Shown in pieces: positions 785 through 28,835 of a stretch of 32,000 bases of DNA. Where the stretch lies: the NCBI RefSeq assembly GCF_000155895.1, contig NZ_DS995298.1:570001-602000 (forward strand), read 5' to 3'. The notes under the pieces were generated by a model. The model ran no database searches. It saw only the letters and a program-made list of their open reading frames with translations, and was not told the DNA's origin. Source of the DNA: Candidatus Pelagibacter sp. HTCC7211 (GTDB lineage Bacteria; Pseudomonadota; Alphaproteobacteria; Pelagibacterales; Pelagibacteraceae). A program made the position numbers and the translations under genes. Position 1 is the first letter of the stretch; every line of letters begins with the position of its first letter.

Positions 785-903
785 TTTAATATATTTATTG
801 TCACATTCTTCACTTACTTAGACTTTCTTTAATGTATACAAGTCGTAAAATCTTTGGTAATTTATATTAACAGTACATTATTTATAAATAAGTGTTGATG
901 CAG

Positions 904-1064: not shown

Positions 1065-1078
1065 TAAAACGAGTTAAT

Positions 1079-5432: not shown

Positions 5433-5438
5433 TAATTA

Positions 5439-7443: not shown

Positions 7444-8621
7444 TGATTTTACATACTATAGCAGATAAAATAGTTTTTAGTATTCTCAATAAAGTTGTTT
7501 ATGGTTACATAGAAATAACAACTTTTTCAGGTCAAATCTTAAAATTTGGTAACCCAGATCAAAAATTAAAAGCAACTATAAAAATTAAAAATCCAGCATT
7601 AAATTTTAATTTGATAAAAAAAGGAAGCGTAGGGTTTGCTGAGTGTTATATGCGAGATGAATTTGAAACTGATAATTTATCTAATTTAATTGAATTTACA
7701 GCTAGAAATATAGACATTGTCCATAAATTTTCTGGAATATTAGATCTTAAATTCCTTAATTTTATTAAAAATAAATTTGTCAAAAATACAAAAAGTAGGA
7801 GTAAAGCAAATATTGCAAAGCATTATGATCTTGGAAATGATTTTTTTTCTTTATGGCTAGACGAAACACTAACTTATTCAAGTGCTATATTTGATGAACA
7901 AACTAAAAATTTGTCTGAAGCACAAAATAACAAGTATCAAAAGTTAATTAATCTAATCCAACCTAATACTGGAGATCGTGTTTTAGAAATTGGTTGTGGA
8001 TGGGGCGGTTTTGCAGAATATTGTGGTAAAAACTATGATATTAAACTTGATTGTATCACAATTTCAAAAAAGCAATTCGAGTACGCTAAAGAGAGAATTC
8101 ATAATTGTGGGTTAAATGAAAAAGTAAATATTGAAATAAAAGATTATCGAGATTTAAAAGGTAAATATAATTCAATCGCTTCGATTGAAATGATAGAGGC
8201 AGTTGGGCAAAATTACTTAGAAAGTTATTTTCAAACATTGAAAAATAATTTAGCTGATGGAGGCAAGGCAGGCATTCAAGCTATTACAATAGATGACAGT
8301 TTATTTGATCGATACAAAAATAAACAAGATTTTATTCAAAAATATATCTTTCCCGGAGGTTTTTTGCCCAATAAAAATACTATCAATAAACTAGTTTCTA
8401 AAAATGGACTAACTGTTAATTCATATATTTCATATGCGGATCATTATGCAGATACACTTGCGATTTGGAAAAAAGAATTTAATAAAAAGTGGGATATGAT
8501 TAAAAACCAAGGTTTTGATTTAACCTTTAAGAGAATGTGGGAATTTTATCTATCTTATTGTGAGGCTGGATTTAAATCAAAAAATATTGATTTAATTCAA
8601 TTTTCGGTTCAAAACAAATAA
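7443..8621 (+). CDS. Cyclopropane-fatty-acyl-phospholipid synthase-like SAM-dependent methyltransferase
   Basis: The SAM motif is VLEIGCGWGGFAEY, and ...HYDLGNDFFSLWLDETLTYSSAIF... and ...WEFYLSYCEAGF... are typical of the CFA/mycolic-acid synthase family. I place the start at the ATG at 7443 (TGATG overlap) rather than the TTG at 7440 used by the ORF track. Confidence 0.85.
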   Translation: MILHTIADKIVFSILNKVVYGYIEITTFSGQILKFGNPDQKLKATIKIKNPALNFNLIKKGSVGFAECYMRDEFETDNLSNLIEFTARNIDIVHKFSGILDLKFLNFIKNKFVKNTKSRSKANIAKHYDLGNDFFSLWLDETLTYSSAIFDEQTKNLSEAQNNKYQKLINLIQPNTGDRVLEIGCGWGGFAEYCGKNYDIKLDCITISKKQFEYAKERIHNCGLNEKVNIEIKDYRDLKGKYNSIASIEMIEAVGQNYLESYFQTLKNNLADGGKAGIQAITIDDSLFDRYKNKQDFIQKYIFPGGFLPNKNTINKLVSKNGLTVNSYISYADHYADTLAIWKKEFNKKWDMIKNQGFDLTFKRMWEFYLSYCEAGFKSKNIDLIQFSVQNK

Positions 8622-8641
8622 TGAATATATTGGAGTTTTAG

Positions 8642-9190
8642 ATGCGTCATATAAAAATTGTTAACTCTATTTTATTGATAATTTCACTCTTCTTAATTAC
8701 AAGTTGTTCAAACAACAATGCAATGAAACCTGAAGATTTTAAAAACAAAGAACCAAGACTTATAATAGAGGAGTATTTAACAGGAAATGTTAAGGCTTGG
8801 GGTGTTTTACAAAATCGTTCAGGAAAAGTTACCAGACAATTTTCAGCAGATTTGGATGGATCATGGGACGGCAAACAATTAATTTTAAAAGAAAAATTTA
8901 ATTGGGATGATGGCGAAGTTCAAAATAGAGTATGGACTATCACTAAAATTGATGAAAATAATTATGAAGGTACAGCTGGAGATGTTGTTGGTAAAGCAAT
9001 AGGATATTCTTATGGACCAGCATTTAAATTTGAGTATGTTTTATTAGTTCCTGTTAAAGGTAAAGAAATGAAAATTACTTTTGATGATTGGATTTTTAAA
9101 CAAGATGAAAGAGTTGCTATAAATCGAGCGACAATGACTAAATTTGGTTTTAAGGTAGCAGAATTAACAGTCGTATTTGTAAAAGATTAA
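8642..9190 (+). CDS. DUF3833-like lipoprotein
   Basis: It has a signal peptide with the lipobox LFLITSC. The body (...FDDWIFKQDE...) resembles DUF3833, which usually accompanies the oxidase/DUF1365/CFA trio. Confidence 0.6.
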   Translation: MRHIKIVNSILLIISLFLITSCSNNNAMKPEDFKNKEPRLIIEEYLTGNVKAWGVLQNRSGKVTRQFSADLDGSWDGKQLILKEKFNWDDGEVQNRVWTITKIDENNYEGTAGDVVGKAIGYSYGPAFKFEYVLLVPVKGKEMKITFDDWIFKQDERVAINRATMTKFGFKVAELTVVFVKD

Positions 9191-9215
9191 TTTTTTTCTT
9201 TATTGTGTTTTTATA

Positions 9216-9264
9216 GCTAACAATAATCATTCTCAAAAAAAATGTGAGATTGATTATCATTCGC
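9216..9264. promoter_or_regulatory. Two Fur-box-like sites forming an imperfect inverted repeat (alternatively a weak terminator hairpin)
   Basis: 9216-9234 GCTAACAATAATCATTCTC matches the 19-bp GATAATGATAATCATTATC consensus at 15/19. 9246-9264 GAGATTGATTATCATTCGC matches at 14/19 (both hand alignments). AATCATTCTCA (9225-9235) and TGAGATTGATT (9245-9255) can also pair as a hairpin. The region lies 46-94 nt upstream of the ATG at 9310. Confidence 0.35.
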
Positions 9265-9309
9265 CAACAATCTTGTTGTTTCTTCATTAAAAAAAAATAT
9301 TATTAAATA

Positions 9310-9486
9310 ATGGAAACACAAAACTATAGTTGTAAAAAATGTGGACTTACAGTTTCATCTATATGCTCTAAATGTGATAGAGTTGTAGATGTAAAAGTTC
9401 TTGATAACGGTTGTATTGTTCAAAAGACAAAATGTAATGATTGTGCAAATGTACCTGTTATTAAAGATGTTTGTTCACAAAGTTAA
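9310..9486 (+). CDS. Small cysteine-rich protein (58 aa, three CxxC pairs), absent from the supplied ORF track
   Basis: Hand translation gives METQNYSCKKCGLTVSSICSKCDRVVDVKVLDNGCIVQKTKCNDCANVPVIKDVCSQS. It has 8 Cys in 58 residues (C8/C11, C19/C22, C35, C42/C45, C55). It fills an otherwise empty 335-nt gap between 9190 and 9526. Confidence 0.45.
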   Translation: METQNYSCKKCGLTVSSICSKCDRVVDVKVLDNGCIVQKTKCNDCANVPVIKDVCSQS

Positions 9487-9525
9487 AAATAATTAAAAAG
9501 AAGTCTATTTATCCTATAAACAAAA

Positions 9526-9771
9526 ATGGAAGTTACAACAGGTATATTCAAAGCAGCCGAAAATATATTTAGAAATAATAAGGGTTCGATATTAAGAACT
9601 ATTGTTTATACTATTGGTCATTTTGCTATTGCAATAACTGTTCTTATGTTAGTTGCTGATGTATCATTTGTTATAGCTTTAACTGATGCAATTATAGAGC
9701 CTCTAGCTAATTCAATTTGGTATTTCATTCTTGATAAATGGTGGATTAGCAAAAATCTTAATAAAAATTAA
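9526..9771 (+). CDS. Small membrane protein, DUF2061-like
   Basis: 81 aa with two hydrophobic helices. ...ILRTIVYTIGHFAIAITV... and ...EPLANSIWYFILDKWW resemble the DUF2061 pattern as I recall it. Confidence 0.5.
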   Translation: MEVTTGIFKAAENIFRNNKGSILRTIVYTIGHFAIAITVLMLVADVSFVIALTDAIIEPLANSIWYFILDKWWISKNLNKN

Positions 9772-10529
9772 TTTTTTTTTTGATATTTTGTAAGTTTACT
9801 TAGTAAACCAAAATAAATACTACTAGGTAAAAAGCTCAAGAATTTTAAGATTAAAGTGAGTGTCTTAGGAAAATGTATCTCAAAATTGTTTTTATTAATT
9901 AATCCATCATAAATTTTATCTGCAGCATACTCAGAAGTCTTTAAAAATGGCATTTTAAAATCATTTTTATCGGTCATTGGCGTTTTAATAAAACCAGGTG
10001 AAACCAAACAAATACGGACATTAAATCTTTTAAAATCAAAATATAAACTTTCAGCTAAATTATTTAATGCTGACTTTGATGGACCATATCCTGTAGAATT
10101 TGGTAGTCCTCGATAACCTGCTATAGAGGAAACTATTGTAATAATACCATTTTTTTTATCTTTAAAATATTTCTCGACAGCTTTTATTGTATTAATTGTT
10201 CCAAAGAAATTAACTTTGAAAACATCTTCTATTTGTTCAATATCAATATCTTTTTCTTTTTTTGGGTTCCATGTTCCAGTTGAAAAAAAACAAATATCTA
10301 TATTTTCAAATTCATTTTTGATTTGATTGAATACTTCTGTACATTTTATTTGATCAGTTACATCGAGAGGAAAAGAAGATATATTTTCATAATCATCCGA
10401 CAACTCTTTCAAAAGTTCCTCACGTCTAGCAGATACAGCAACATTCCAGCCTTTACTTGCAAATTTAATTGCTAAAGCCTTACCTATACCTGTGCTACCA
10501 CCTGTGATCCAAATAGTTTTTTTATTCAT
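9768..10529 (-). CDS. Short-chain dehydrogenase/reductase (SDR)
   Basis: It has TGGSTGIGKALA (cofactor motif) and the YGPSK (YxxxK) catalytic motif. I start it at MNKKTIWITGG (ATG at 10529). The 22-codon N-terminal extension in the ORF track would overlap the TspO gene and looks non-coding. Confidence 0.85.
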   Translation of the reverse strand: MNKKTIWITGGSTGIGKALAIKFASKGWNVAVSARREELLKELSDDYENISSFPLDVTDQIKCTEVFNQIKNEFENIDICFFSTGTWNPKKEKDIDIEQIEDVFKVNFFGTINTIKAVEKYFKDKKNGIITIVSSIAGYRGLPNSTGYGPSKSALNNLAESLYFDFKRFNVRICLVSPGFIKTPMTDKNDFKMPFLKTSEYAADKIYDGLINKNNFEIHFPKTLTLILKFLSFLPSSIYFGLLSKLTKYQKKN

Positions 10530-10551
10530 ATTATATTGATATATTATTATC

Positions 10552-11019
10552 ATGATTAAAAATAAATTTTTAACTTTTATATTATTTTTTTTCATTACTT
10601 ATTCAGCTTCTTTAATTGGCGGATTAGCTACTATTAATTTTAAAGAGCCTTGGTATTCACAACTAATTAAACCATCGTTTAATCCACCAGATTGGATTTT
10701 CGCACCTGTTTGGACAACACTTTATTTAATGATGACAGTAGCAATTTGGTTTTATTGGCATTCAAAAAACAGAAACATGAATACAGTTTATATTTATTTT
10801 ATTCATTTAATCTTTAATACAACTTGGAGTATAATTTTTTTTGTATTCCATAATATTCTCTTAGCACTAATAGTATTAATTATATTAATCGTATTGATAA
10901 TAATTCTCATAATAAGGTTTAAACGTGTCAATCTGCTTAGCGTTTACTTAATGATTCCATATTTACTTTGGTGTTGCTTTGCATTAATTCTTAATACGAG
11001 CTTATTAATATTAAATTAA
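10552..11019 (+). CDS. tspO: TspO/MBR tryptophan-rich sensory protein
   Basis: 155 aa with five hydrophobic helices. ...WYSQLIKPSFNPPDWIFAPVWTTLYLMM... is the typical TspO signature. Confidence 0.8.
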   Translation: MIKNKFLTFILFFFITYSASLIGGLATINFKEPWYSQLIKPSFNPPDWIFAPVWTTLYLMMTVAIWFYWHSKNRNMNTVYIYFIHLIFNTTWSIIFFVFHNILLALIVLIILIVLIIILIIRFKRVNLLSVYLMIPYLLWCCFALILNTSLLILN

Positions 11020-11021
11020 AT

Positions 11022-12125
11022 ATGGATGATGTAGTAATTATTGGTGGTGGAATAATCGGTACAGCTACTGCATACTTTTTATCAAAAGAAGGAAGAAAAG
11101 TTAAAGTAATAGAAAGAGATCCCACATATAAAACCGCTTCATTCCCTTTATCATTAGGTGGATTTAGAAGACAATTTTTTCAAAAAGAAAATATCCTTTT
11201 AGGTAAATTTGCTAGAGAGTTTATCTTTAATATTCCTGAGATTTTAAAAACAGAAAAAAATCCTAATCCTACTGCTAGCATGGTAACTAATGGCTATTTA
11301 TTAATGTTTGGTCCTGAACATGCAGAAGAACAATACAGAGCTCTTGAAAATCATAAAGAGTGTGATGCAGGAACAAAAAATATTAAGGGTTCTGAGTTAT
11401 CAAATGTTTTTCCTTACATTAATAATGATGGGATTGAGACAGCCACTTACACAGACAATCAAAGCGAAGGTTGGATTGATCCATTCATGTTTCATGGTGC
11501 ATTAAAAAGTAAAGCTATTGAATTAGGAACAGAATTTATTAAAGGAGAAGTAAAAAGTATCTCAGAAATTAAAGCAAAAACTATAATATCTGCTGCTGGA
11601 TGCTGGACTAAAAAGTTGCTAGATGACATTCCTGTAGTACCCCAAAAACACACAGTTTTTAGAGTTAAGTGTCCAAAATATATAAAAGAAATGCCATTAA
11701 CTGGTGATTTAACCACCGGAGTTTATTGGAGACCAGAAGGTGGTGAGTATCTTGCAGGTTCTCCACATTCTGTATTTGATGCAGAAGATTTAGAACCAGC
11801 TTGGAATGATTTTGAGGAATTAGTTTGGCCCGCATTAGCTAAAAGAATACCAGCATTTGAAGAATTAAAATTAACTGGTGGTTGGGCAGGCTATTATGAT
11901 TGTAATAAATTAGACAACAATGCGGTTGTTGGCAAACATCCTAAATATGAAAATGTATATATGGCTTCAGGTTTTACAGGAAGAGGTTTAATGCAAGCAC
12001 CTGGAATCGGAAGAGCCTTAACAGAATTAATTACTACTGGCTCATATCAAACGATTGATATAAGTGATTTTTCAGTTGAAAGAGTGCTTGGTAATAGTGC
12101 TAGACCTGAACCTTACGTTTTATAG
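11022..12125 (+). CDS. FAD-dependent oxidoreductase (DAO / glycine-sarcosine oxidase-like family)
   Basis: The N-terminal motif is VVIIGGGIIGTATAYFL...ER and the C-terminal motif is ...ASGFTGRGLMQAPGIGRALTELI.... Both are typical of the DAO family. The substrate cannot be assigned from sequence. Confidence 0.75.
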   Translation: MDDVVIIGGGIIGTATAYFLSKEGRKVKVIERDPTYKTASFPLSLGGFRRQFFQKENILLGKFAREFIFNIPEILKTEKNPNPTASMVTNGYLLMFGPEHAEEQYRALENHKECDAGTKNIKGSELSNVFPYINNDGIETATYTDNQSEGWIDPFMFHGALKSKAIELGTEFIKGEVKSISEIKAKTIISAAGCWTKKLLDDIPVVPQKHTVFRVKCPKYIKEMPLTGDLTTGVYWRPEGGEYLAGSPHSVFDAEDLEPAWNDFEELVWPALAKRIPAFEELKLTGGWAGYYDCNKLDNNAVVGKHPKYENVYMASGFTGRGLMQAPGIGRALTELITTGSYQTIDISDFSVERVLGNSARPEPYVL

Positions 12126-12127
12126 AA

Positions 12128-13573
12128 TTAAGTCCCACAATAAGTTTGATAATTATTATTTGAGGATGGAAATTGGAATTCATCAATATTTTCTAAATTA
12201 TCGTACGGGTTTTCCAAAACGGACAGTAACTTATTGAAATTATCTAAATTATTTTCATTTGCAGCTAATAATGCTTCTTCAACTTTATGATTTCTTGGAA
12301 TTACAGTTGGATTAGTATTTTTCATAAGTTTTAAAGATTTTTCTATAGAGCCATTATTAATTAAAACTCTGTTTTTCCAGTTTTTAATCCAAGTTAAAAA
12401 TTTTTGATCTTTATAGATTTCATTACTAATAGAGTCTTTGTTCATTAAGTAACAAAAAGTATTTGTATAATCTGCTTTATTTTGTTCCATCCAATTGAGC
12501 AAATCTTCAATTATCTTTTTATCTCTTTGATCTTCTCCAAAAAAACCAAGTTTATCTCTCATCATGTTTAACCATTTTTCTTCATATATATTTTGAAAAT
12601 TATTAATAGTTTCGCTTGCTATTTTAATTGCTTCATCTTCATCTTTATCGATCACTGGTATGAGGCACTCAGCAAATCTAGCCAAATTCCATTTAGTTAT
12701 TGGTGGTTGGTTTGAAAATGAATATCTTCCAAATCTATCTATTGAACTAAATACTGTTTTTGGATCATAATGATCCATAAATGCACAAGGACCATAATCA
12801 ATAGTTTCTCCTGAGATAGCCATATTGTCTGTATTCATTACACCATGAATAAAACCAACTCGCATCCAGTTAACAACTAGCTGACATTGTTTTTCCATAA
12901 CAAGATTTAAAAGGTCTAATGCTTTATTATCAGATGTTTGAATTTCTGGATAGTGTCTATCAATTGTATAATTAACTAGAGTGTTTAAATCATCTATATT
13001 TTGTTTAGCAGCGATATATTGAAAAGTTCCTACACGAATATGGCTAGATGCTACACGTGTTAAAATCGCTCCAGGTAATAAATTTTCTCTAACAACTTTT
13101 TCTCCAGTACTAATTACAGCTAAACTTCTTGTAGTCGGAATATTTAATGCATGTATAGCCTCACTAACAATATATTCTCTAAGCATTGGTCCTAATACTG
13201 CACGTCCGTCACCACTTCTAGAGAATGATGTTTTTCCTGACCCTTTAAATTGGATATCAAAACGCTTGTTTTTATTGACCAAATGTTCACCTAATAGGAC
13301 AGCTCTTCCATCTCCCAACATAGTAAAATGACCAAACTGATGACCTGCATAAGCTTGGGCAATTGTGGAACTTCCTTCAGGTAAAACATTACCTGAAAAA
13401 ATTTTTGCTAATTCTTTTTTTGATATATTAGAAAAATCTAAATTTAATTCTTTAGCTAGTTTTTCATTTAATATTATTAATTCAGGATCTTTAACAGGCG
13501 TTGGTTTGATTACTTCTTTAAAATTATCAGAAAGTTTTGAATAGGTGTTATCAAAATGCCAACCAATGGTCAT
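12128..13573 (-). CDS. selO: Protein adenylyltransferase SelO (YdiU/UPF0061)
   Basis: 481 aa. Blocks ...AQAYAGHQFGHFTMLGDGRAVLLGE..., ...GDGRAVLGPMLREYIVSEAIHALNIPTTRSLAV... and ...HGVMNTDNMAISGETIDYGPCAFMD... align with E. coli YdiU as I remember it. Confidence 0.85.
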   Translation of the reverse strand: MTIGWHFDNTYSKLSDNFKEVIKPTPVKDPELIILNEKLAKELNLDFSNISKKELAKIFSGNVLPEGSSTIAQAYAGHQFGHFTMLGDGRAVLLGEHLVNKNKRFDIQFKGSGKTSFSRSGDGRAVLGPMLREYIVSEAIHALNIPTTRSLAVISTGEKVVRENLLPGAILTRVASSHIRVGTFQYIAAKQNIDDLNTLVNYTIDRHYPEIQTSDNKALDLLNLVMEKQCQLVVNWMRVGFIHGVMNTDNMAISGETIDYGPCAFMDHYDPKTVFSSIDRFGRYSFSNQPPITKWNLARFAECLIPVIDKDEDEAIKIASETINNFQNIYEEKWLNMMRDKLGFFGEDQRDKKIIEDLLNWMEQNKADYTNTFCYLMNKDSISNEIYKDQKFLTWIKNWKNRVLINNGSIEKSLKLMKNTNPTVIPRNHKVEEALLAANENNLDNFNKLLSVLENPYDNLENIDEFQFPSSNNNYQTYCGT

Positions 13574-13578
13574 TTAAA

Positions 13579-16347
13579 TTAAACTACTTCAGCTTGATTT
13601 TCTTTAGGCTTTACTTCTGTTTTAAACTGATTAGAAATTTTTTGAACTTCTACCGAAGATACTTTGTATTCAGCACACATAGTTTCTTCGTCTTTTCCAT
13701 GACCCGTAACCATATTAACCATGTGTTCAGGAAAATGAAAAGTTGTAAATACTATTCCTTCTTTCACTTTATCAGTGACTTCAACCTTTAAAGCTACTTC
13801 ACCTCGTCCTGAATATAGTCTTCCAATATCACCTGTATTAAGATCTCTATTTGCTGCATCGTTTGGATGAATAAGCAGAACATCTTCATCAACTATATTT
13901 ATATTTTTTGTTCTTCTAGTCATGGTTGCAGCATTATAATGTTGTAGGACTCTACTAGTCGTTAAAATTAAAGGATAATCTTTTTTATTAGTCTCTATTT
14001 CTGTTGACTCTTTCCAATCAAAGTTTTTAAGTCTTCCTTTTCCAAGTTTAAATGTTTCTGTATGAAGAATTTGTGTATCAGTTCCATCTTCTTGAACTGG
14101 CCATTGTAATCCAAGCTTACCGAGCCTTTCTCTTGTTACTCCTTTAAAGAAAGGAACCACATCTGCAATTTCCTTTAACATTTTATCTGCATCATATGTG
14201 GGTTGATCAAAACCAAGTTTTTGCATCATATCTGTTACAATAACTCCATCTGGTTTTGTACCAGGGAGTGGTGGAACCGCTCTATTAACTCTTTGTATCC
14301 TTCTTTCAGTGTTAGTAAACGTTCCATCTTTTTCTAAGAAAGTTGTTCCTGGTAATACAACCGTTGCAAGTTTAGCCGTTTCACTCATAAATATTTCTTG
14401 AACAACTAAAAGCTCTAACGAGTTCATTGCCTCAACAACATGTGCACTGTTGGGGTCTGTTTGCACAATATCTTCTCCAATAATCCATAGACCTTTTAAT
14501 TCTTTCTCAATTGCTGCCTCAAACATTTGTGGAATTTTTAATCCTGGTTTTGTTGGATGAGTTACACCATATTTTTCGGTATAAAATTTTTGATTTTTTT
14601 TATCAGCAACCTCAAAGTAACCAGCTCCTTGATGTGGTTGACAACCCATATCCGCAGCTCCTTGAACATTGTTTTGTCCTCTAAGTGGATTTACACCAAC
14701 ACCTTTTCTTCCAATATTTCCTGTAATCATTGCAAGATCTGCAATAAGCATTACTGTTTTAGACCCTTGTTCTTGTTCAGTAACTCCTAAACCATGGAAT
14801 TCCATTGAATTTTTAGCAGTTGCATAGGTTATGGCCGCTTCTTTAACCATTTGTTTGTCAACACCTGCAACACTAGCTAAATGATCTACGTCTTGTCTTT
14901 CTATTTCTTTAATAAAATTATCAAAACCTTCGGTTCTATCTCTTACAAAATCTACGTTATATAGCTTAGATTTTATAATAAAATGCAGCATCATATTCAG
15001 TACTGCAACATTAGTTCCAGGTCTTAATTTGATATGGTAATCTGCTAGTCTTGCTAATTCAGTTGTTACAGGGTCTAATACAATTAGTTTTTTACCTTTC
15101 ATTACTTGCTGTTTAATTTTTGCACCAGTTACTGGGTGAGCATTTGTTGGGTTTGCTCCAATAACTATAAAACAATCAGCATGATAAATATCTTCTGTAG
15201 AATTAGTTGCAGCACCCGTTCCGAATGTTTGTTGCATACCCCATGCTGTAGGCGAATGACAAATACGTGCACAACAATCAACACTGTTAGTTCCAACAGC
15301 TGCTCTAATCATTTTTTGAAATATATAGTTTTCTTCATTAGTACATCTTGCTGATGAAATTCCTGCAAATGCATCTGGACCATTATCTTTTACAATTCTG
15401 TTCATTTCTTTTTTTATAAAATCATACGCTTCATCCCATGAAGCTTCTTCAAACTTTCCATTTCTTTTTATTAATGGAGTTTTTAATCTGTCAGGATGAT
15501 CATAAAAACTAAATGCATATCTTCCTTTAATACAAGTATGACCGGCGTTTACTTCTGTTTCTTTAGGTGTATCAATTGCTACAACTTTATCATCTTTGAT
15601 TGATGCTTCTAAATTACAGCCAACTCCACAATATGAACATGTGGTTCTAACTTTTTTATCTACAGCTGCAGATTTAGATTGAAAAACATCAGAGATAGCA
15701 TCTGTTGGACATGTGTGTGCACAAGCTCCACAAGAAACACATGATGAGTCACCAAACATCATATCGTTATCAGTTGTAATTCTAGACTCAAATCCTCTAC
15801 CACTCATAGTTAAAACAAATGAACCTTGAATTTCGTCACAAGCTCTGACACATCTTCCACAATTAATACAATTATCTAAATTCATTCTCATATAGTCATG
15901 AGAAGTATCTCTTGGAATTCCTTTATGTTGTTTAGGACTATTGTATCTATGATCTGAGATACCAAGATCATTAGCAACAGTTTGAAGTTCACAATTATTA
16001 TTAACCTCACAACTATCACATTCCATAGGATGGTCTGTTAAAACCAATTCTACGATATTTTTTCTAAGATCTTTTAATGATTCATTTGATGTAAAGATAT
16101 GTTGATTTTCAGCAACGGGTGTATGACAAGATGCAACAACTCTTGTTGGACCATCTTTTTCAAGCGCAACCTCAACAGAGCACACTCTGCAAGCTCCATA
16201 TGGAGCAAGGTTTGGATCATCGCAAAGAGTTGGAACTTTCTTTTCTCCAACATAACTTTTAACAAATTTTAATATTGATGTATGATTAGCACCAATTTCA
16301 TAGGGCTTTCCGTCAATATAAGCAATTTTTCTTTTTTCAGAACTCAT
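13579..16347 (-). CDS. fdsA: NAD-dependent formate dehydrogenase alpha subunit (molybdopterin; N-terminal 2Fe-2S and 4Fe-4S domains)
   Basis: 922 aa. The N-terminus carries NuoG-like Fe-S cysteine clusters (CRVCSVEV, CDSCEVNNNCELQ, CINCGRCVRAC, CVSCGACAHTCP) followed by a molybdopterin oxidoreductase body (CSYCGVGC...). It lies beside fdsB and fdhD. There is no in-frame TGA, so it is a Cys-type enzyme rather than a Sec-type. Confidence 0.9.
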   Translation of the reverse strand: MSSEKRKIAYIDGKPYEIGANHTSILKFVKSYVGEKKVPTLCDDPNLAPYGACRVCSVEVALEKDGPTRVVASCHTPVAENQHIFTSNESLKDLRKNIVELVLTDHPMECDSCEVNNNCELQTVANDLGISDHRYNSPKQHKGIPRDTSHDYMRMNLDNCINCGRCVRACDEIQGSFVLTMSGRGFESRITTDNDMMFGDSSCVSCGACAHTCPTDAISDVFQSKSAAVDKKVRTTCSYCGVGCNLEASIKDDKVVAIDTPKETEVNAGHTCIKGRYAFSFYDHPDRLKTPLIKRNGKFEEASWDEAYDFIKKEMNRIVKDNGPDAFAGISSARCTNEENYIFQKMIRAAVGTNSVDCCARICHSPTAWGMQQTFGTGAATNSTEDIYHADCFIVIGANPTNAHPVTGAKIKQQVMKGKKLIVLDPVTTELARLADYHIKLRPGTNVAVLNMMLHFIIKSKLYNVDFVRDRTEGFDNFIKEIERQDVDHLASVAGVDKQMVKEAAITYATAKNSMEFHGLGVTEQEQGSKTVMLIADLAMITGNIGRKGVGVNPLRGQNNVQGAADMGCQPHQGAGYFEVADKKNQKFYTEKYGVTHPTKPGLKIPQMFEAAIEKELKGLWIIGEDIVQTDPNSAHVVEAMNSLELLVVQEIFMSETAKLATVVLPGTTFLEKDGTFTNTERRIQRVNRAVPPLPGTKPDGVIVTDMMQKLGFDQPTYDADKMLKEIADVVPFFKGVTRERLGKLGLQWPVQEDGTDTQILHTETFKLGKGRLKNFDWKESTEIETNKKDYPLILTTSRVLQHYNAATMTRRTKNINIVDEDVLLIHPNDAANRDLNTGDIGRLYSGRGEVALKVEVTDKVKEGIVFTTFHFPEHMVNMVTGHGKDEETMCAEYKVSSVEVQKISNQFKTEVKPKENQAEVV

Positions 16348-18002
16348 TAATTATCCTTAACCATATCATTTTTCATTTCATCTCCAAAGTACTTAAGAAT
16401 ATTCATTATTGGAGTAGGGATTGCTCCACAAAGAGCACATAAACATCCTTTTTGCATCGTAACTAGTAATTCATTAAGCAATTTAAGGGGAATTTTTGCT
16501 GTTTTTTTCTTTGCTTGGTCAAACATTTCTTTACCCCTGTATGATCCTAGTCTTCCAGGAAAACATTTTCCACACGATTCTTCAGCAGAAAATTCAAATA
16601 GATGATGAATATATTCTGACATTGAAAAATCTTTTGGAATACTTACCACACTTGCATGTCCTAGCATAAATCCTTTTGCAGTAAATTCTTGAAAATCTAA
16701 ATTTAAATTATCAATCTCAGCTAAAGGCACAACACCGCCTAATGGACCTCCTATTTGAAATGCTTTGACAGCTTCTTTATATCCACCACCAATTTCTTCA
16801 AATATTTTTTTCATAGATGTTCCCATATCAATTTCGTAGACACCTGGATTATTAAAAAAACTATCAAGACACACTAATTTTGTTCCTGCAGATTTTTTAT
16901 TTCCTATAGCTGAAAATTTTTCAGAACCATTAATTAAAATACCAGTTGCAGCAGCTAAAGTTTCTACATTATTTACGACAGTTGGTTTTTTATATAAACC
17001 TTCTGTAACAGGAAAAGGGGGTCTAACATCTACCTCTGCTCGTCTTCCTTCGATAGATGCAATCAATGCAGTTTCTTCACCACAAATATAAGCACCCTGA
17101 CCAATACAAATTCCTAAATCAAAAGAAAAATCTGTTCCTAAAATATTTTCACCTAAAAGATTTAATTTTTTAAGTTCGTTAATACATCCATTAATAGCCT
17201 CAATAGATTTTGGATATTCACCTCTTATATACAAAACACCTTCATCACTTCCAATCACTAGACCACAAATTACCATTCCAAAGATAACTTTTAATGGTTG
17301 ATCTTCTAACAAGTATCTATCCGAAAAGGCGCCTGAATCTCCTTCATCTGCATTGCAAAGAACATATTTTTTATCACCTTTTGCTTTACTACAAAAATCC
17401 CATTTCATTCCTGTAGGAAAACCTGCGCCACCTCTACCAGTTAGATTAGAGTCTAATAATGATTTAATGATTTCTTTTTTATCAACTTTTAAAAATTTGT
17501 TTAATTGATCTTTAAATTGGTCTGTCGATGAAAACTTATCATCCATTAAAAAACTTGTTGTAGCAAAACTTTTTGAAAAAAATTTTTCTTGTTTGATATC
17601 TTCACCTTTTAAAATTTGATCAATTTTTTCTATATCTTTTCCTGCATAATTTTCACCATCATAGTGAAATGCATTATTTTCATAACAATGACCAAGACAA
17701 AACATTTCACCAACTTTATCATCACCAAGTTTTTCTTTTAGAGTGTCTTTTAGTTTTTCTTGTGTTCCTGCACACATACATGCACTACCATTACACACAA
17801 ATGCTTTTTTTTCTCTGTGAGCAGGTCTTAAAAATTCATAAAAAGACTCTGCCCCATGAAGAGTTGACACTCCAAGATTATGTTTTTTGGCAATTTCCTT
17901 AATATCTTGAGGTTTTTCACTTAATGTATTTTCTGAAATTTGTTTAAATAGATTATCTTTTAATCCTATTCTTCCAGATAAATTACTTATGTTTTTTGAC
18001 AC
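16347..18002 (-). CDS. fdsB: Formate dehydrogenase beta subunit (NuoF-like FMN/NAD module with an N-terminal NuoE-like 2Fe-2S domain)
   Basis: GRGGAGFPTGMKW is the NuoF FMN/NADH motif. The C-terminal CGKC...C...C cluster is a 4Fe-4S signature. The N-terminal CNGSAC...CLGHC (Cx4C...Cx3C) is a NuoE-type 2Fe-2S pattern. The stop overlaps the fdsA ATG by 1 nt. Confidence 0.85.
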   Translation of the reverse strand: MSKNISNLSGRIGLKDNLFKQISENTLSEKPQDIKEIAKKHNLGVSTLHGAESFYEFLRPAHREKKAFVCNGSACMCAGTQEKLKDTLKEKLGDDKVGEMFCLGHCYENNAFHYDGENYAGKDIEKIDQILKGEDIKQEKFFSKSFATTSFLMDDKFSSTDQFKDQLNKFLKVDKKEIIKSLLDSNLTGRGGAGFPTGMKWDFCSKAKGDKKYVLCNADEGDSGAFSDRYLLEDQPLKVIFGMVICGLVIGSDEGVLYIRGEYPKSIEAINGCINELKKLNLLGENILGTDFSFDLGICIGQGAYICGEETALIASIEGRRAEVDVRPPFPVTEGLYKKPTVVNNVETLAAATGILINGSEKFSAIGNKKSAGTKLVCLDSFFNNPGVYEIDMGTSMKKIFEEIGGGYKEAVKAFQIGGPLGGVVPLAEIDNLNLDFQEFTAKGFMLGHASVVSIPKDFSMSEYIHHLFEFSAEESCGKCFPGRLGSYRGKEMFDQAKKKTAKIPLKLLNELLVTMQKGCLCALCGAIPTPIMNILKYFGDEMKNDMVKDN

Positions 18003-24936: not shown

Positions 24937-25989
24937 ATGGCAAAAATTAAAACAAAAAGAGAAAGAGTTAAATTTGCATCAGATAATGTTGCGGGTGCTT
25001 GTCCAGAAGTATTAGATGCAATTATTAAAGCTAATGAAGGAGACAGCACTCCTTATGGAAACGACCAAATTTCAACAGAACTTCAAGATAAATTTTCTCA
25101 AATTTTTGAAAAAGAAGTTATAGTTTTTCCTACAGCTTCAGGAACAGCTGCTAATGCTTTAGCTTTATCAACGATGACACCATCATTTGGTAATATTTAT
25201 TGTCATAAAATGTCCCATATTAACACTGATGAATGTGGCGCTCCAGAATTCTACACTGGTGGTGGAAAACTTGTTACTCTCCAGGGTGTTAAAGGAAAAA
25301 TAACTGCTGAAGAACTAGATGAAGCGATTACTGGAAAAGGAATTGTACACCATACTCAACCCTCGTCTGTTAGCATTACACAAGTTTGTGAAACAGGAGA
25401 AGTTTATCAATTAGATGAAATAAAAAAAATATCAGATGTTGCTCATAATCATAATTTAAATATGCATATGGATGGCGCTAGATTTGCAAATGCATTAGTG
25501 TCACTTGATGTAACGCCAGCCGAGATGACTTGGAAGTCAGGTATTGATGTATTATCTTTTGGTGCAACCAAAAATGGTTGTTTAGCTGCAGAAGCTATAA
25601 TTTTCTTTAAAAAAGATTTAGTTGGCAATGTTACTTTTTTAATGAAAAGAGCAGGGCATTTGTTATCAAAAATGCGTTTTGTATCTGCTCAATTAGATGC
25701 TTATATAACTAATGATGTTTGGATTAAAAATGCAAGACACGCAAATAAAATGGGAAAAAAACTCAGTGATGGATTGATTAGTCACCCTGATATTAATTTA
25801 TCTTTTCCAACCGAAGCTAATGAGGTTTTTGCAACATTTCCAAGAAATAAAATTGAACATTTAAATTCCGAGGGCTATACAATAAATGAAGACGAGTGGG
25901 ACGGTAAAGCAGTGAGATTAGTTGCAGCTTGGAATACTAAGGATAATGATGTTGATGAGTTTTTAAATATACTCAATAAGACTAACTAG
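24937..25989 (+). CDS. ltaE: Low-specificity L-threonine aldolase (PLP-dependent)
   Basis: 350 aa. It has ...FASDNVAGACPEVLDAI..., ...FPTASGTAANALAL... and the PLP-lysine context ...SFGATKNG..., all typical of threonine aldolases. Confidence 0.85.
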   Translation: MAKIKTKRERVKFASDNVAGACPEVLDAIIKANEGDSTPYGNDQISTELQDKFSQIFEKEVIVFPTASGTAANALALSTMTPSFGNIYCHKMSHINTDECGAPEFYTGGGKLVTLQGVKGKITAEELDEAITGKGIVHHTQPSSVSITQVCETGEVYQLDEIKKISDVAHNHNLNMHMDGARFANALVSLDVTPAEMTWKSGIDVLSFGATKNGCLAAEAIIFFKKDLVGNVTFLMKRAGHLLSKMRFVSAQLDAYITNDVWIKNARHANKMGKKLSDGLISHPDINLSFPTEANEVFATFPRNKIEHLNSEGYTINEDEWDGKAVRLVAAWNTKDNDVDEFLNILNKTN

Positions 25990-26209
25990 GGTTTTGTTTT
26001 AGATATTCAATATAATTTACCACCTCATTAAATTTTTCATCAGGAATATCTTTGTAACTTGCATTAAAATTATCTTTCACACATATCGCTACATGGGCGT
26101 AGGAGTTTCTTCCTTTAGGATGATTTGGGTGGTCGGGCAGCTGACCGCGCAAATAATCGCCAGCTTCCTGAATAATTTTCCAGAGTTTATTTGCGTTTTC
26201 TTTATTCAA
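25982..26209 (-). CDS. Small hypothetical protein (75 aa, TTG start) whose 5' end is duplicated at 28374-28433
   Basis: The open frame begins MNKENANKLWKIIQEAGDYLRGQLPDHPNHPKG.... The C-terminal half (...SYAHVAICVKDNFNASYKDIPDEKFNEVVNYIEYL) vaguely recalls phage ORF6C-type domains, which is unverified. The start is TTG, whereas the duplicated stub has ATG. The 3' end overlaps the ltaE stop by 8 nt (convergent). Confidence 0.5.
   Translation of the reverse strand: MNKENANKLWKIIQEAGDYLRGQLPDHPNHPKGRNSYAHVAICVKDNFNASYKDIPDEKFNEVVNYIEYLKQNPS
26150..26209. repeat. Left copy of a 60-bp imperfect direct repeat (5' end of the 75-aa gene)
   Basis: A hand alignment of 26150-26209 with 28374-28433 gives 52/60 identical positions with no gaps. 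The first 21 nt (CAAATAATCGCCAGCTTCCTG) are identical. Confidence 0.85.
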
Positions 26210-26220
26210 ACTACTTAAAT

Positions 26221-26259
26221 CCTTGTTTTATCTCTTCTGTGTCGAGTTAGTGTCGAGTT
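26221..26259 (-). promoter_or_regulatory. Roughly 40-bp element containing tandem GTGTCGAGTT (11-nt period), copy 1, upstream of the 75-aa gene
   Basis: GTGTCGAGTT occurs at 26239-26248 and again at 26250-26259. The wider block CCTTGTTTTATCTCTTCTGTGTCGAGTTAGTGTCGAGTT recurs at 28218-28257, with about 32/39 identical and one 1-nt indel. Read on the minus strand it gives TCGACA, an 18-nt spacer, then GATAAA, which is a plausible -35/-10 arrangement. Confidence 0.45.
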
Positions 26260-26303
26260 ATCCTATAAAATCCTACAATCATTATCTTAAAAGTTTTTTC
26301 ACA

Positions 26304-26684
26304 TCAGTATTTTTGCTTTGATGGAATTACACCTCTAACACCACCTCTTGGGTCATCTATATCTCCTTTACGCCTTGGTATTAAATGTATATGAAGATGC
26401 ATTACAGTTTGACCTGCAGTTTCTCCCTGGTTTATTCCTATATTAAATCCAGTAATGCTATTATCTTTTCCTATTAAACTGTCTTTTTGAAATTTTATTA
26501 TATTATTTAATTGAATAATATCTTTATCTCTAAGATCAAAATATGTTTTGTTATGTTCATTTAAGATAATTAATGTGTGATCCGTAGTTACAGGATATGC
26601 ATCTCTTATCACATAAAAAATATCATCTTCGTAAATTATATTTAATTTTTCTTTGTTACAGAATATACAATTATTATTTTCCAT
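26304..26684 (-). CDS. HIT (histidine triad) family nucleotide hydrolase/transferase
   Basis: 126 aa. It has the N-terminal CIFC and the histidine triad MHLHIHLIPR (H96/H98/H100). The C-terminal tail is DIDDPRGGVRGVIPSK. The start overlaps the upstream HNH gene by 11 nt. Confidence 0.85.
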   Translation of the reverse strand: MENNNCIFCNKEKLNIIYEDDIFYVIRDAYPVTTDHTLIILNEHNKTYFDLRDKDIIQLNNIIKFQKDSLIGKDNSITGFNIGINQGETAGQTVMHLHIHLIPRRKGDIDDPRGGVRGVIPSKQKY

Positions 26685-27681
26685 TATTTAATACTGTTAA
26701 AAATCTTTTAAAAAATAAGTCTTTTTCCCTGTTATAATCTTTATCTCCCATCCAATAATTATTACCATAAACTTGCTTTGCATTCTCGTAATGATTTAAT
26801 AAAGTTTTTCTTCTTTGATTTTTAGTCGAGCCTAGAGATGCAACTATCTTTCCTTTCCAAGGATGGCTACTTCCAATGATATTTTCATTCCTGTTGAATA
26901 ACTTTTCAATATAATGTGGTCCAACTAATGCTTCTAGTTTATTTTCGTTACACATCCTATGACTAACAGTTAAATTCCATTCTTCATCATGCTGCAATAA
27001 ATCTCTAGGTATTAAATGTTCTACAGGAGGGGTTTCATTTTCAAGTAATTCTAAACCACATAGAAAGCATATATTTGATTGATATGCTCTTAAAAAATCT
27101 CTTTGATCTGAAAGATCTTTCCTGTCATGACCGTTTGTTAGATATATATTTCGAATATCATTTTCTAATTTAAAATTGTCTCTCTTGATTAAGTAAGCAC
27201 CCTCAAGCATACTATGTTTCATTTCTGCTTCTTTTTCTAGACTAATCATTTGGTTTTTTGGAATTTCAAAAAAATTATCTTTCAATATTATTTTTTTACC
27301 AAATTGATATTCATAAAAATAATTCTTAAGTGTTTCTTTATCCTTACCAAATGACTGAAATCTTGGAATTACATCATTAAAGCCATCTTTACCTATTTCA
27401 CTTATTGCTTGATCATAGTTAATTCTATTATTTTTTAATTTATAAAACACTGTCTCTTGGACAGATCTTCTAAAAGGATTGCTTTGTTGAGGTCTTGGAT
27501 CATTTGTCAATCTATCAAAATAAATTTTAAAATATTGTTCTGATAAATCTTGCCAGGAAATAGTATGTTGATCATTGTTATAAAAATGATTTAAGGTTTT
27601 AAACAGAGCAATTTTATGAGTACCTGCATTTAATCCATATAATAATATGGCTTGAGCCCAGTCATAGTTTGTAAATTTCAT
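26674..27681 (-). CDS. HNH (His-Me finger) nuclease-domain protein with an uncharacterised N-terminal region of about 200 aa
   Basis: 335 aa. Residues 205-248 read CFLCGLELLENETPPVEHLIPRDLLQHDEEWNLTVSHRMCNENK, which fits the pattern CxxC ... EHxxP ... WN ... CNxxK (nt 26938-27069). I recognise no motif in residues 1-200 or 250-335. Confidence 0.75.
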   Translation of the reverse strand: MKFTNYDWAQAILLYGLNAGTHKIALFKTLNHFYNNDQHTISWQDLSEQYFKIYFDRLTNDPRPQQSNPFRRSVQETVFYKLKNNRINYDQAISEIGKDGFNDVIPRFQSFGKDKETLKNYFYEYQFGKKIILKDNFFEIPKNQMISLEKEAEMKHSMLEGAYLIKRDNFKLENDIRNIYLTNGHDRKDLSDQRDFLRAYQSNICFLCGLELLENETPPVEHLIPRDLLQHDEEWNLTVSHRMCNENKLEALVGPHYIEKLFNRNENIIGSSHPWKGKIVASLGSTKNQRRKTLLNHYENAKQVYGNNYWMGDKDYNREKDLFFKRFLTVLNNGK

Positions 27682-27683
27682 TA

Positions 27684-27857
27684 TTAATGAAGTACTCTAT
27701 CAAGTACCTCAATTTTAATATGCTGATAATCATCCTGGATATCAAATTCTATTGCCATGTCATCATCAGGATCTAACGTTTTACGAACTAAATTAACGTA
27801 TTGATCAATTCTTTTATAAGAAATTTTGCCTCTAAATATTTTTTCAAATCTTTTCAC
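27684..27857 (-). CDS. Possible 57-aa ORF (GTG start) wedged between the DUF1330 and HNH genes
   Basis: Hand translation gives VKRFEKIFRGKISYKRIDQYVNLVRKTLDPDDDMAIEFDIQDDYQHIKIEVLDRVLH. It starts 6 nt after the DUF1330 stop, and its TAA ends 2 nt before the HNH ATG. It is not in the ORF track, and I recognise no homology. Confidence 0.3.
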   Translation of the reverse strand: MKRFEKIFRGKISYKRIDQYVNLVRKTLDPDDDMAIEFDIQDDYQHIKIEVLDRVLH

Positions 27858-27863
27858 TGAGTT

Positions 27864-28151
27864 TTAATTCCCCTCAACTAAAACTAGATGAGCTTTGGCC
27901 GCTAATTCTCTAACCGCTTTAGCCGCTTGATATTTTTCTGACTCATAGAATTTACGAGCAGCATCAATGCTTTCAAATTCAATTAATATAACAGTACCTA
28001 AATTTTCACCTTCTCTTACGTCAGGACTGGGTTCACGAACAAGAACTTTGCCACCGTGCTCTCCAATAGTTGGTCCAGACATTTGTTTAAACTTTTCCAT
28101 ACCTTCTTTATCGTGTACTTTAAGATGTGCTATCAAATATCCTTTGCTCAT
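27864..28151 (-). CDS. DUF1330 family protein
   Basis: 95 aa. ...GYLIAHLKVHDKEGMEKFKQ...HGGKVLVRE...VILIEFESIDAARKFYESEKYQAAKAVRE...LVLVEG follows the DUF1330 consensus as I recall it. It is preceded by AAGGAG 8 nt upstream of the ATG. The gene looks G+C-richer than its neighbours by eye. Confidence 0.75.
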   Translation of the reverse strand: MSKGYLIAHLKVHDKEGMEKFKQMSGPTIGEHGGKVLVREPSPDVREGENLGTVILIEFESIDAARKFYESEKYQAAKAVRELAAKAHLVLVEGN

Positions 28152-28217
28152 AATTTTCTCCTTTATGTTTTAATGTAACAAATCCTAAACCATGAGTCTA
28201 TTTGCTTTAAAATAGCT

Positions 28218-28257
28218 GTTTGATTTATCTTTTTTGTGTCGAGTGTGTGATCGAGTT
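28218..28257 (-). promoter_or_regulatory. Roughly 40-bp GTGTCGAGT-repeat element, copy 2, upstream of the DUF1330-HNH-HIT cassette
   Basis: GTTTGATTTATCTTTTTTGTGTCGAGTGTGTGATCGAGTT is homologous to 26221-26259 in the same orientation. It lies 66 nt upstream of the DUF1330 ATG. Confidence 0.45.
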
Positions 28258-28364
28258 TTTTAATTAAATTGATGAGTCTTTAAGAGATTTATTTCAAACT
28301 AACTTTTTAATATCCGCATTTGTACTGTAGAATAATGCAGCTTAATGCAGGATAGATTGAACCT

Positions 28365-28433
28365 CTAATCCCCCAAATAATCGCCAGCTTCCTGTATCAT
28401 TTTCCACAGTTTACTTGCGTCCTCTTTGTTCAT
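28365..28433 (-). pseudogene. 22-codon stub duplicating the 5' end of the 75-aa gene (ATG start, premature TAG)
   Basis: The reverse complement reads ATG AAC AAA GAG GAC GCA AGT AAA CTG TGG AAA ATG ATA CAG GAA GCT GGC GAT TAT TTG GGG GAT TAG, giving MNKEDASKLWKMIQEAGDYLGD*. This compares with MNKENANKLWKIIQEAGDYLRG... for the full gene. Homology stops abruptly at 28373/28374. Confidence 0.65.
28374..28433. repeat. Right copy of the 60-bp imperfect direct repeat
   Basis: See 26150-26209. Identity is 52/60 in the same orientation. Confidence 0.85.
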
Positions 28434-28466
28434 CACTTATTTAATTTTATAGTTTATAAATTTTAT

Positions 28467-28835
28467 ATGAAAAATATCTTAATTTTAATAATTATCTTTT
28501 TAAACATTAATTCTATAGCAGTAAGCAAAGGAACTACTTTCACCAATGAGATATTTGAAAAATCTCAATTAGAAGGGAAAACAGTCGTTATACACTCATG
28601 GAATAAAACTTGTTTAACTTGCGCAGAACAAGTTAAGATTTTAGACCAGGCTAAACAGGACTTTAAAGACACGATATTCTTGAGCTTTGAACAGACTAAA
28701 GATAAAAAAATTGCTAAATTTTTAGATATTGATTATTGGACAACAATAGTTGTCTATAAAAACAATAAAGAAATTTCACGTTCTATTGGTCAGACAAATA
28801 AAGAAGAGATTTACTCTCAAATTAATTCTAAGTAA
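28467..28835 (+). CDS. Secreted thioredoxin-fold protein (CxxC)
   Basis: 122 aa. It has an N-terminal signal-like hydrophobic segment. ...VVIHSWNKTCLTCAEQ... carries a W-x-x-x-C-x-x-C active-site context typical of the TlpA/thioredoxin-like fold. Confidence 0.65.
   Translation: MKNILILIIIFLNINSIAVSKGTTFTNEIFEKSQLEGKTVVIHSWNKTCLTCAEQVKILDQAKQDFKDTIFLSFEQTKDKKIAKFLDIDYWTTIVVYKNNKEISRSIGQTNKEEIYSQINSK

Follow-up and report, generated by a model that had tools for sequence, protein, structure and literature searches.

A probable integrase-less mobile element at the 5' end of a small gene beside ltaE in Candidatus Pelagibacter sp. HTCC7211

In the SAR11 bacterium Candidatus Pelagibacter sp. HTCC7211, a small gene next to a threonine aldolase gene of the ltaE type begins twice: its 5' end is repeated in the same orientation roughly 2.2 kb away, with several other genes in between. 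How did this segment come to interrupt the gene, and can it still move? The DNA analysed, hereafter the window, is a stretch of 32,000 nucleotides (nt) of contig NZ_DS995298.1 (assembly GCF_000155895.1, positions 570,001 to 602,000, forward strand), and the small gene, which encodes 75 amino acids (aa), is called p75. The segment is very probably an integrated, integrase-less (non-autonomous) member of a family of SAR11 elements that target the 5' end of p75. A sequence-only reading of the same DNA had proposed site-specific integration in which the incoming DNA supplies a substitute gene start, and this proposal is supported by attachment-site (att) repeats, empty alleles and integrase-bearing relatives.

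The two copies of the gene start, at 26150–26209 and 28374–28433, are identical at 52 of 60 positions without gaps and include a 21-nt exact run; the similarity extends to 57 of 68 positions (26141–26208 against 28365–28432). The direct repeat of the sequence-only reading is thereby reproduced. The second-best match of the 60-mer within the window is 32/60, and the best matches in 200 first-order Markov sequences of 32 kb and like composition had a mean of 32.2 and a maximum of 36, which rules out the chance origin that the same reading had considered unlikely. As described there, the left copy is the in-frame 5' end of the intact gene, with a TTG start. The right copy is indeed an ATG-initiated stub of 22 codons (MNKEDASKLWKMIQEAGDYLGD; ATG at 28433–28431), but its TAG, placed earlier at the boundary 28373/28374, lies at 28367–28365, two codons past the repeat, and forms part of a conserved element end. 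The four open reading frames (ORFs) that separate the copies all read on the minus strand, again as reported. Neither a tRNA gene nor an integrase had been visible in the letters; searches for tRNA genes and for integrase or primase homologues were empty across the window, including 26210–28373. A tRNA or tmRNA as the integration target was set aside, with none detected in the window. The G+C content is 0.235–0.27 inside the segment against 0.31–0.37 in ltaE, a mild and indecisive dip, given that it falls to 0.21 elsewhere in the window. The site is laid out as follows.

24937–25989, plus strand: ltaE-like threonine aldolase (Pfam Beta_elim_lyase, E=2e-59), conserved host flank and anchor for the comparative loci
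25982–26209, minus strand: p75, the target gene, intact at 75 aa and starting with TTG (ORF); host sequence from about codon 21
26150–26209, minus strand: putative attR core, the probable element-supplied surrogate 5' end of p75 (codons 1–20), recognised by its match to the stub
26210–26279, minus strand: predicted element right end (P arm); the same module occurs in the comparative loci and in the attP of relatives
28152–28364, minus strand: predicted element left end (P' arm), conserved in integrase-less mini-elements and aligning with the attP/int 5' region of the integrase-bearing L085 and L081
28365–28433, minus strand: putative attL, the former 5' end of p75, now displaced and reduced to 22 codons that terminate at the element's TAG, assigned from the comparative loci
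28434–28835, plus strand: host flank, a 33-nt spacer and a thioredoxin-like gene (28467–28835; Pfam Thioredoxin, E=2.5e-8)

The target gene belongs to a narrow family, with 4974 homologues in a word-indexed search and 245 cluster representatives, and matches no Pfam family and no PADLOC family. Its AlphaFold2 model consists of three helices (pLDDT, the predicted local distance difference test score, 92.7), for which Foldseek returned no PDB match with E below 2, and the family shares the conserved motif HPKGRNPYAHV...SYKD. The locus was compared over the 80 best relatives of ltaE, all from Pelagibacter or Pelagibacteraceae, giving 81 loci with the window, and over a second set of 58 metagenome loci, for which the thioredoxin-like gene served as anchor. 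These ltaE relatives, together with a glycine riboswitch, identify the window as SAR11 from its sequence. The ltaE and p75 genes are adjacent and convergent in 80 of 80 loci; the next conserved genes (thioredoxin-like, MFS, EamA) lie between 1.2 kb and more than 10 kb away from p75. With the window counted, the 5' end of p75 is present once in 49 loci, twice in 22, three times in eight and four times in two; the extra fragments, zero to three per locus, are all oriented as p75. Across the 81 loci, nt 1–60 of p75 are 92–98% identical in nearly all copies, intact or stub, and the homology of the stubs to p75 ends sharply at nt ~60–63, where conserved element-end sequences begin. Intact p75 is directly preceded by an element end in 45 of the 81 loci and stands without one in 36. 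A host flank containing agatcagagaaattatagatattagaaaaagtttattttttagataaaact, from other SAR11 lineages, borders intact p75 in nine genomes, and in five further ones it borders the outermost stub. By this comparison, the first ~60 nt of p75, beside ltaE, are the likely chromosomal attachment site.

Alleles in which an intact, ATG-initiated p75 sits beside the thioredoxin-like gene had been named as the mark of an unoccupied site, and they exist. In L112 and L088, such a p75 lies 36–46 nt from the thioredoxin-like gene, and both loci represent empty alleles for the context of the window; the gene order in L112 is amidinotransferase-ltaE-p75-Trx-MFS-EamA, Trx denoting the thioredoxin-like gene. 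At nt 34–43 of p75, the stub of the window, L112 and L088 all carry ATGATACAGG, whereas the intact gene of the window carries CTCTGGAAAATTATTCAGG, as is expected if the element donated a new 5' end. A G at nt 26 (CTGTGG) is common to the stub and L112 only, L088 having CTCTGG. In L099, the stub and flank match those of the window except at one position, in the stub, but the cassette differs and measures 1.45 kb.

The inserted units have characteristic ends, given here in the reading direction of p75 (minus strand in the window). On the 3' side of each canonical stub stand GGG(G/T)..TAG, a small palindrome (e.g., AGGTTCAACCT) and three tandem repeats of ~10 nt (e.g., ATCCACATTA AGCTACACTA TTCTACAGT). 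On the 5' side of the next p75 copy stand TAGGATTTTATAGGATA, two tandem 11–12-nt repeats starting with ACT, GAGATAAA(A/T)CAAG and ~11 nt to the start codon. In the case of the window, the right end is composed of TAGGATTTTATAGGATA (26275–26259), two tandem copies of ACTCGACAC (26258–26250 and 26247–26239) and GAGATAAAACAAGG (26234–26221), the last separated from the p75 start codon by an 11-nt spacer. This module precedes intact p75 or inner stubs (45/81 loci), and the same module precedes a p75-like coding start, the p75 mimic, in the attP of L081, L082 and L146–L148. The left end of the window comprises the small palindrome AGGTTCAATCT (28364–28354), the 10–11-nt tandem repeats ATCCTGCATTA, AGCTGCATTA and TTCTACAGTA (28353–28323), a conserved spacer, the arm repeats ACTCGATCAC (28256–28247) and ACTCGACAC (28244–28236), and finally GATAAATCAA (28229–28220). 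In most elements, such a second arm-repeat pair occurs in the left end at a fixed spacing, with a GATAAA motif at +144 from the core. A second direct repeat in the window, absent from the sequence-only reading (26223–26252 against 28220–28249, 83%), is present because both element ends carry ACTCGACAC (26239–26258 and 28236–28256). A promoter and terminator scan of 25900–28600 found 16 promoter-like sites against 16.3 expected and is hence uninformative on the GAGATAAA module as a promoter.

The ACT arm repeats vary among elements, with at least 18 types in 35 elements, and the two ends of one element resemble each other. The left and right arm modules within an element agree at a mean of 18.6/25, against 13.3 ± 0.45 (maximum 15.5) in 2000 permutations. 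Of the 35 elements, ~30 have two intact, matching ends and ~5 have mismatched arm types. The element of the window has arm type ACTCGACAC at both ends, the same as the integrase-bearing L085; the right end of the window's element contains ACTCGACACTAACTCGACACAGAAGAGATAAAACAAGG and its left end GGGGATTAGAGGTTCAATC. Positions 26210–28373 appear, from their sequence, to be one unit of 2,164 bp with complete left and right ends and a single arm type.

A lambda-type attP contains a core flanked on both sides by repeated arm sequences, two to one side and a larger number to the other. By analogy, the tandem repeats of the SAR11 elements are interpreted as candidate arm-type sites of an integrase; they differ from lambda in that one repeat set lies inside the 5' coding region of the integrase itself, and integrase binding is putative.

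The integrase in question is carried by relatives of the inserted units. A core-motif scan of viral contigs led to L081, an IMG/VR contig of 9,070 nt whose 29-nt terminal overlap closes a circle of 9,041 bp. Its right-end module, ACTCGAACCAA ACTCGAATTAA AAGAGATAAATCAAG, is followed by an ORF that encodes MSPEKSQKLWKIIQEAGDYLGE and a stop, then by a left-end module (palindrome and three CACACTA repeats) and immediately by an ORF of 581 aa, the first codons of which again hold ACTCGA repeats and GAGATAAAACAA. The 581-aa protein matches PHROG_1 integrase at E=1e-22 and Pfam Phage_integrase at E=8.6e-6 (26.1 bits against a cut-off of 27.1). Residues R383, K410, R507, H531 and Y541 are invariant across 24 homologues and correspond to the tyrosine-recombinase set, Lys replacing the first His; the protein is, as predicted from its sequence, a tyrosine integrase, and its family comprises 352 proteins of the collection searched. 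The circle also encodes an AEP-primase/DUF5906 protein and a RusA-like protein, and no capsid or terminase gene was recognised on it. With a looser core pattern, the viral contigs yielded besides L081 only L144 and L145, G+C-rich phage contigs that were dismissed as chance matches.

The autonomous members of the family measure ~9 kb and encode a tyrosine integrase of ~570 aa and an AEP-type primase/DUF5906 protein; they are represented by the circular virome contig and by integrated copies. In L085 (GCA_902601045.1), the order is stub, int (L085:830–2536), small genes, Prim-Pol/AAA_25, p75, ltaE, amidinotransferase and creatinase, and L083 is an equivalent integrated copy at ltaE-p75. L082, an IMG/VR contig of another arm type (ACTATA), also carries attP. 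Three further integrases (L146–L148), 62–70% identical, have a p75-mimic attP directly upstream with matched arm repeats; their mimic peptides, each closed by a stop, are MNEDNRRKIWKLIQEAGLYLGS, MTKENASKLWKMIQEAGDYLRD and MNEDNRRKLWVLIQEAGHYLGG. The attP lies directly upstream of int and begins with two tandem 11–12-nt repeats, GAGATAAA(A/T)CAA, a start codon and ~20 p75-like codons, continues with TAG, a small palindrome and three ~10-nt repeats, and ends ~144 nt further on with the same tandem repeats, within the 5' end of int. The relatives' attP thus encode p75-like N-termini behind the same module as in the window, and this bears out the earlier statement that a diverged 5' end and an upstream element came with the incoming DNA. 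The free or circular attP form is known for L081, L082 and L146–L148, and not for the cassette of the window. Because the mimic peptides are diverged at the DNA level yet keep the conserved residues of the p75 family, the mimic appears to be under selection to restore a working p75; such selection at the protein level would also account for the imperfect repeat in the window.

The arm repeats of the left end lie within the first ~25 codons of int (K-L-D/E-x-K-L-D/E ... I-K-Q-T-R), at L081:5766–5820, L085:830–900, L146:10001–10071, L147:2653–2723 and L148:4582–4652. As a result of this position inside the coding sequence, the variable DNA repeats and the N-terminal peptide of the integrase change together. 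The 18-kb Tara contig L146 contains two tandem integrase/primase elements of ~9.1 kb (877–17329, period 9,124 bp), each with attP; the copies are 91.6% identical position by position, a value perhaps lowered by indels, and the tandem may represent DNA packaged as a concatemer, two integrations in a row or an error of assembly.

The position of strand exchange can be narrowed by the polymorphisms of the core. The identity between attP and p75 DNA is highest at nt ~40–60 (CAGGAAGCTGGCGATTATTT). At nt 46–48 of L085, the intact gene has the element-type GCC and the stub the host-type GCT, so that the crossover would lie 3' of nt 48 and before the end of homology at ~63; in some stubs, the host-type TTTAC at nt 56–60 is joined to the GGGATTAG of the element, pointing to the very edge of the repeat. 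We infer that strands are exchanged towards the 3' margin of the repeat, within nt ~49–63 of the gene. In the proposed mechanism, the integrase would exchange strands within this interval, after which p75 would be read from the upstream module and N-terminus supplied by the element, and the old 5' end would remain as a stub of 22 codons closed by the element's TAG. Successive integrations would push older elements outward and form arrays. The element of the window would have kept both ends, with its integrase and replication genes replaced by a DUF1330 gene, a 57-aa ORF and an HNH-HIT pair, and a cognate integrase acting in trans most probably brought it in and could also release it. The cargo is as follows.

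26304–26684, minus strand: HIT-family protein, 126 aa (Pfam HIT, E=1.7e-17; PADLOC HIT-family, E=2e-9)
26674–27681, minus strand: HNH-domain protein, 335 aa (Pfam HNH_4, E=0.0011, below the cut-off; weak PtuB-like PADLOC matches)
27684–27857, minus strand: candidate gene, an ORF of 57 aa with no family in Pfam
27864–28151, minus strand: DUF1330 protein, 95 aa (Pfam, E=6e-29)

The cassette is a mosaic. Its first ~530 nt, comprising the left end and the DUF1330 gene, are 92% nt identical to the cassettes of L006 and L007, in which the DUF1330 protein is 100% identical in amino acids, and the core flank is 84% identical; the remainder is unique among the compared loci. The HNH gene and the overlapping HIT gene (window 26304–27681) recur as a pair at L149:5001–6376 and L150:1880–3264, with HNH proteins 43–47% identical; homologues of the 335-aa protein carry PF13395 and PF01844. 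One occurrence, in the Robiginitalea aurantiaca genome, has EcoRII-like, DUF6339, MazG-like and GIY-YIG/helicase genes as neighbours, the other is on a metagenome contig, and neither is at a p75 site. PADLOC recognised no defence system in the cargo of the window, reporting only generic HIT and weak PtuB-like HNH matches. The pair may be an undescribed two-gene defence module, and it is cargo, not the agent of insertion.

That last point bears on the mechanisms listed in the sequence-only reading, namely a decayed element, mobilisation in trans and HNH-driven homing, among which a non-autonomous, integrase-less member of a tyrosine-integrase family fits best. For homing, the 335-aa HNH protein would cut the empty p75 site and the cassette would be copied in by repair. 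An HNH-domain gene does lie inside the segment, but it is present in only one of 44 cassettes, that of the window, its HNH-HIT homologues occur in Robiginitalea and on the metagenome contig away from p75 sites, and the conserved ends and integrase-bearing relatives explain the insertion without it; HNH-driven homing is rejected as wholly improbable.

The 44 cassettes delimited by two cores measure 0.69–9.55 kb. ORF clustering and visual inspection, with Pfam searches confined to the cargo of the window, suggest that they contain restriction-modification and other defence-like genes, helicases, DUF262-like and HNH proteins, genes for secreted proteins and metabolic genes. A search of the 44 cassettes, and of the 80 genomes up to 10 kb from ltaE, found no integrase or primase. 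The integrase-less units, or mini-elements, possess a common left end of ~235 nt, including a spacer CTTATGCGGATATTAAAAAGTTAGCTTGAAATAAATCGCTTAAAGACTCATCAATTTAATTAAAAA before the arm repeats that differs from the spacer of the autonomous elements; in place of the int start codon of L085 (GAGAAAGATGAAAGAAAAACTCGAT), CAATTTAATTAAAAAACTCGAT stands in the window and in the other mini-elements, and cargo starts after the GATAAATCAA motif. Because this common left end has a spacer lacking in the autonomous elements, the mini-elements look, on sequence grounds, like a lineage of their own and not like independent deletions. Two internal left ends without a p75 stub (L028:11271–15180 and L007:14746–16382) resemble pairs of cassettes fused by core loss. 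The outermost stubs at L001:18744–18804, L004:16992–17052 and L040:3368–3427 are truncated at nt 35–47 and abut unrelated sequence without a canonical end; these are decayed or non-canonical junctions. A larger element occupies the same site at L084:9566–11479, where a terminal stub with host flank and an integrase (492 aa as called) precede more than 10 kb of opposite-strand genes, including GIY-YIG, PD-(D/E)XK and an 852-aa protein.

Movement of such units is best seen in one cassette that is 99.85% identical over 4.08 kb in L001, where it is second in the array, and in L043, where it is first, while the core flanks are 80–83% identical; L008/L018 and L009/L015 provide smaller contrasts of the same kind. 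We infer that the transfer used the element ends and an integrase in trans. As for the copy in the window, we lean slightly towards its being still mobilisable in trans. It might instead be an inert remnant, its integrase and replication genes deleted in situ, immobile and spread by vertical descent or by locus-wide homologous recombination. The alignment of the left-end arm module with the int 5' coding region of L085 and L081, as a deletion derivative would show, the lack of an integrase nearby, and the decayed or fused cassettes (truncated stubs in L001 and L004, stubless internal left ends in L028 and L007) all agree with such a history. However, the mini-elements' own ~235-nt left end with its distinct spacer suggests a propagating lineage, the ends are intact and matched in most elements, and the near-identical cassette has diverged flanks and a different array position in each genome, so that inert descent seems to us doubtful.

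Another possibility is that cassettes are exchanged by homologous recombination after uptake of SAR11 DNA, through the cores, the ends and the ltaE/p75 flank, an integrase being needed only for the first arrival. The high identity of the cores in all copies, the ~5 of 35 elements with ends of different arm types and the mosaic of the window, with ~530 nt common to L006/L007, are what such exchange would leave. Alone, however, it makes no stubs or tandem arrays and requires an integrative source, and it leaves unexplained the retention of both arm modules at fixed distances; it is a possible account but not the one we would back. An integron-like platform, in which a resident integrase adjoining the site takes up promoterless cassettes delimited by a recombination site, would suit the single-site, single-orientation arrays of small and mostly cargo-only cassettes, but no integrase lies within 10 kb in the 80 genomes, the repeat unit is a coding 5' fragment with asymmetric ends and not one attC-type site per cassette, and the integrases found are borne by elements. 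The integron gene cassette model, with neither a resident integrase nor attC-type sites, is rejected as very unlikely.

Several points weigh against the reading of the segment as an integrated, trans-mobilisable member of the family. No integrase lies in the window, the part of this genome that was searched, and trans-mobilisation of its copy is hypothetical. The Pfam score of the integrase falls below the curated cut-off, and the profile of its family found nothing at E<=0.1 among PDB sequences. Matched arms would also be inherited passively if the mini-elements arose by internal deletion of an autonomous parent, and homologous recombination via the conserved flanks could spread cassettes between genomes. 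Furthermore, the crossover position depends on few informative polymorphisms, and the arm-site role of the tandem repeats is drawn by analogy with a lambda-type attP.

Parts of this arrangement are familiar from other systems. SXT/R391 integrative and conjugative elements, at the 5' end of prfC, and phage 21 and e14, at icd, supply a replacement gene terminus, SXT also a new promoter; they differ from the SAR11 elements in being large conjugative elements or prophages of enterobacteria and vibrios, and we know of no arrays of mini-cassettes with variable arm repeats for elements of the SXT or phage 21 type. Cis-mobilisable elements (CIMEs) of streptococci, mobilisable genomic islands and the staphylococcal cassette chromosome (SCC) arrays at orfX keep att sites without a recombinase, accrete in tandem and use the integrase of relatives. 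The recombinase families, hosts and targets of CIMEs and SCC are different, and in SAR11 at least 18 arm-repeat types occur on one core.

A close likeness is to the tycheposons of Prochlorococcus, tyrosine-recombinase elements with replication modules at few island hotspots, in which side-by-side elements are separated by a partial target copy and degenerate remnants lie further in (Hackl et al., bioRxiv 10.1101/2020.12.28.424599). The likeness is one of architecture: a streamlined marine host, a site-specific integrase, a primase/replication module, tandem accretion and remnants, the cargo of tycheposons including defence and nutrient genes. The integrase and replication module occur in L081, L083, L085 and L146–L148 and not in the copy of the window. 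Judged by the criterion of a tRNA target, the SAR11 elements are not tycheposons. In contrast to tycheposons, the SAR11 target is the 5' end of a protein-coding gene and not a tRNA, the elements supply a surrogate N-terminus at the protein level together with an upstream module, and integrase-less units with their own ends dominate, as shown by the 44 cassettes and the lack of an integrase in the 80 genomes.

Small elements with an integrase and a primase, recovered in virus-fraction data and integrated in Pelagibacter, appear in the available text on virion-encapsidated integrative mobile elements (VEIMEs) or phage satellites (Eppley et al. 2022, PMC9618062) and on Pelagibacter tyrosine-recombinase mobile regions (Biller et al. 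2025, PMC11876622), with integration 'frequently near tRNAs' (PMC9618062, PMC11876622). The autonomous SAR11 elements resemble them, L081 being a 9-kb circular IMG/VR contig, L082 another IMG/VR contig and L146 a pair of tandem copies; DNA inside virus particles, often as concatemers, and dependence on a helper phage, which mark VEIMEs, would be hypothetical for them. In the accessible portions of PMC9618062 and PMC11876622, this att site, the p75 mimic, the arm-repeat code and integrase-less cassettes are not described. A search of the literature, with many subscription papers outside its reach, found no published description of the p75 attachment site, a protein-level mimic, highly variable matched arm repeats with one set inside the integrase gene, or a dominance of a mini-element lineage. 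The mechanism is ordinary in kind, namely site-specific integration by a tyrosine integrase, and new in its particulars.

A SAR11 pangenome study reported no canonical mobile elements in genomic islands and noted a single integrase (PMC11796062). SAR11 is the most abundant bacterial group of the ocean, and at least one of its flexible islands, beside ltaE, is very probably built by site-specific integration, with a defined attachment site, element ends, an integrase family and many integrase-less cassettes that cross species boundaries. The att core, the arm repeats and the integrase make up a testable recombination system, possibly of use as a marker of recent gene gain in SAR11 genomes and metagenomes and as a site-specific tool for a group lacking genetics. 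A more speculative proposal, to which we give limited credence, is that the integrase-less lineage is self-propagating and that its matched 9-nt end repeats act as an 'address code' for a cognate, satellite-borne integrase variant. If this were true, dozens of orthogonal integrase/arm pairs would operate on one core and shuttle defence and metabolic genes among SAR11 species, a gene capture that is functionally integron-like and built of phage-satellite parts.

Elsewhere in the window, the only Rfam match is a glycine riboswitch (RF00504, 46.3 bits) at 995–1069, far from the site. It lies upstream of a 367-aa ORF heading a series of ORFs at 1079–5432, which we take, from position, to be gcvT-gcvH-gcvP.

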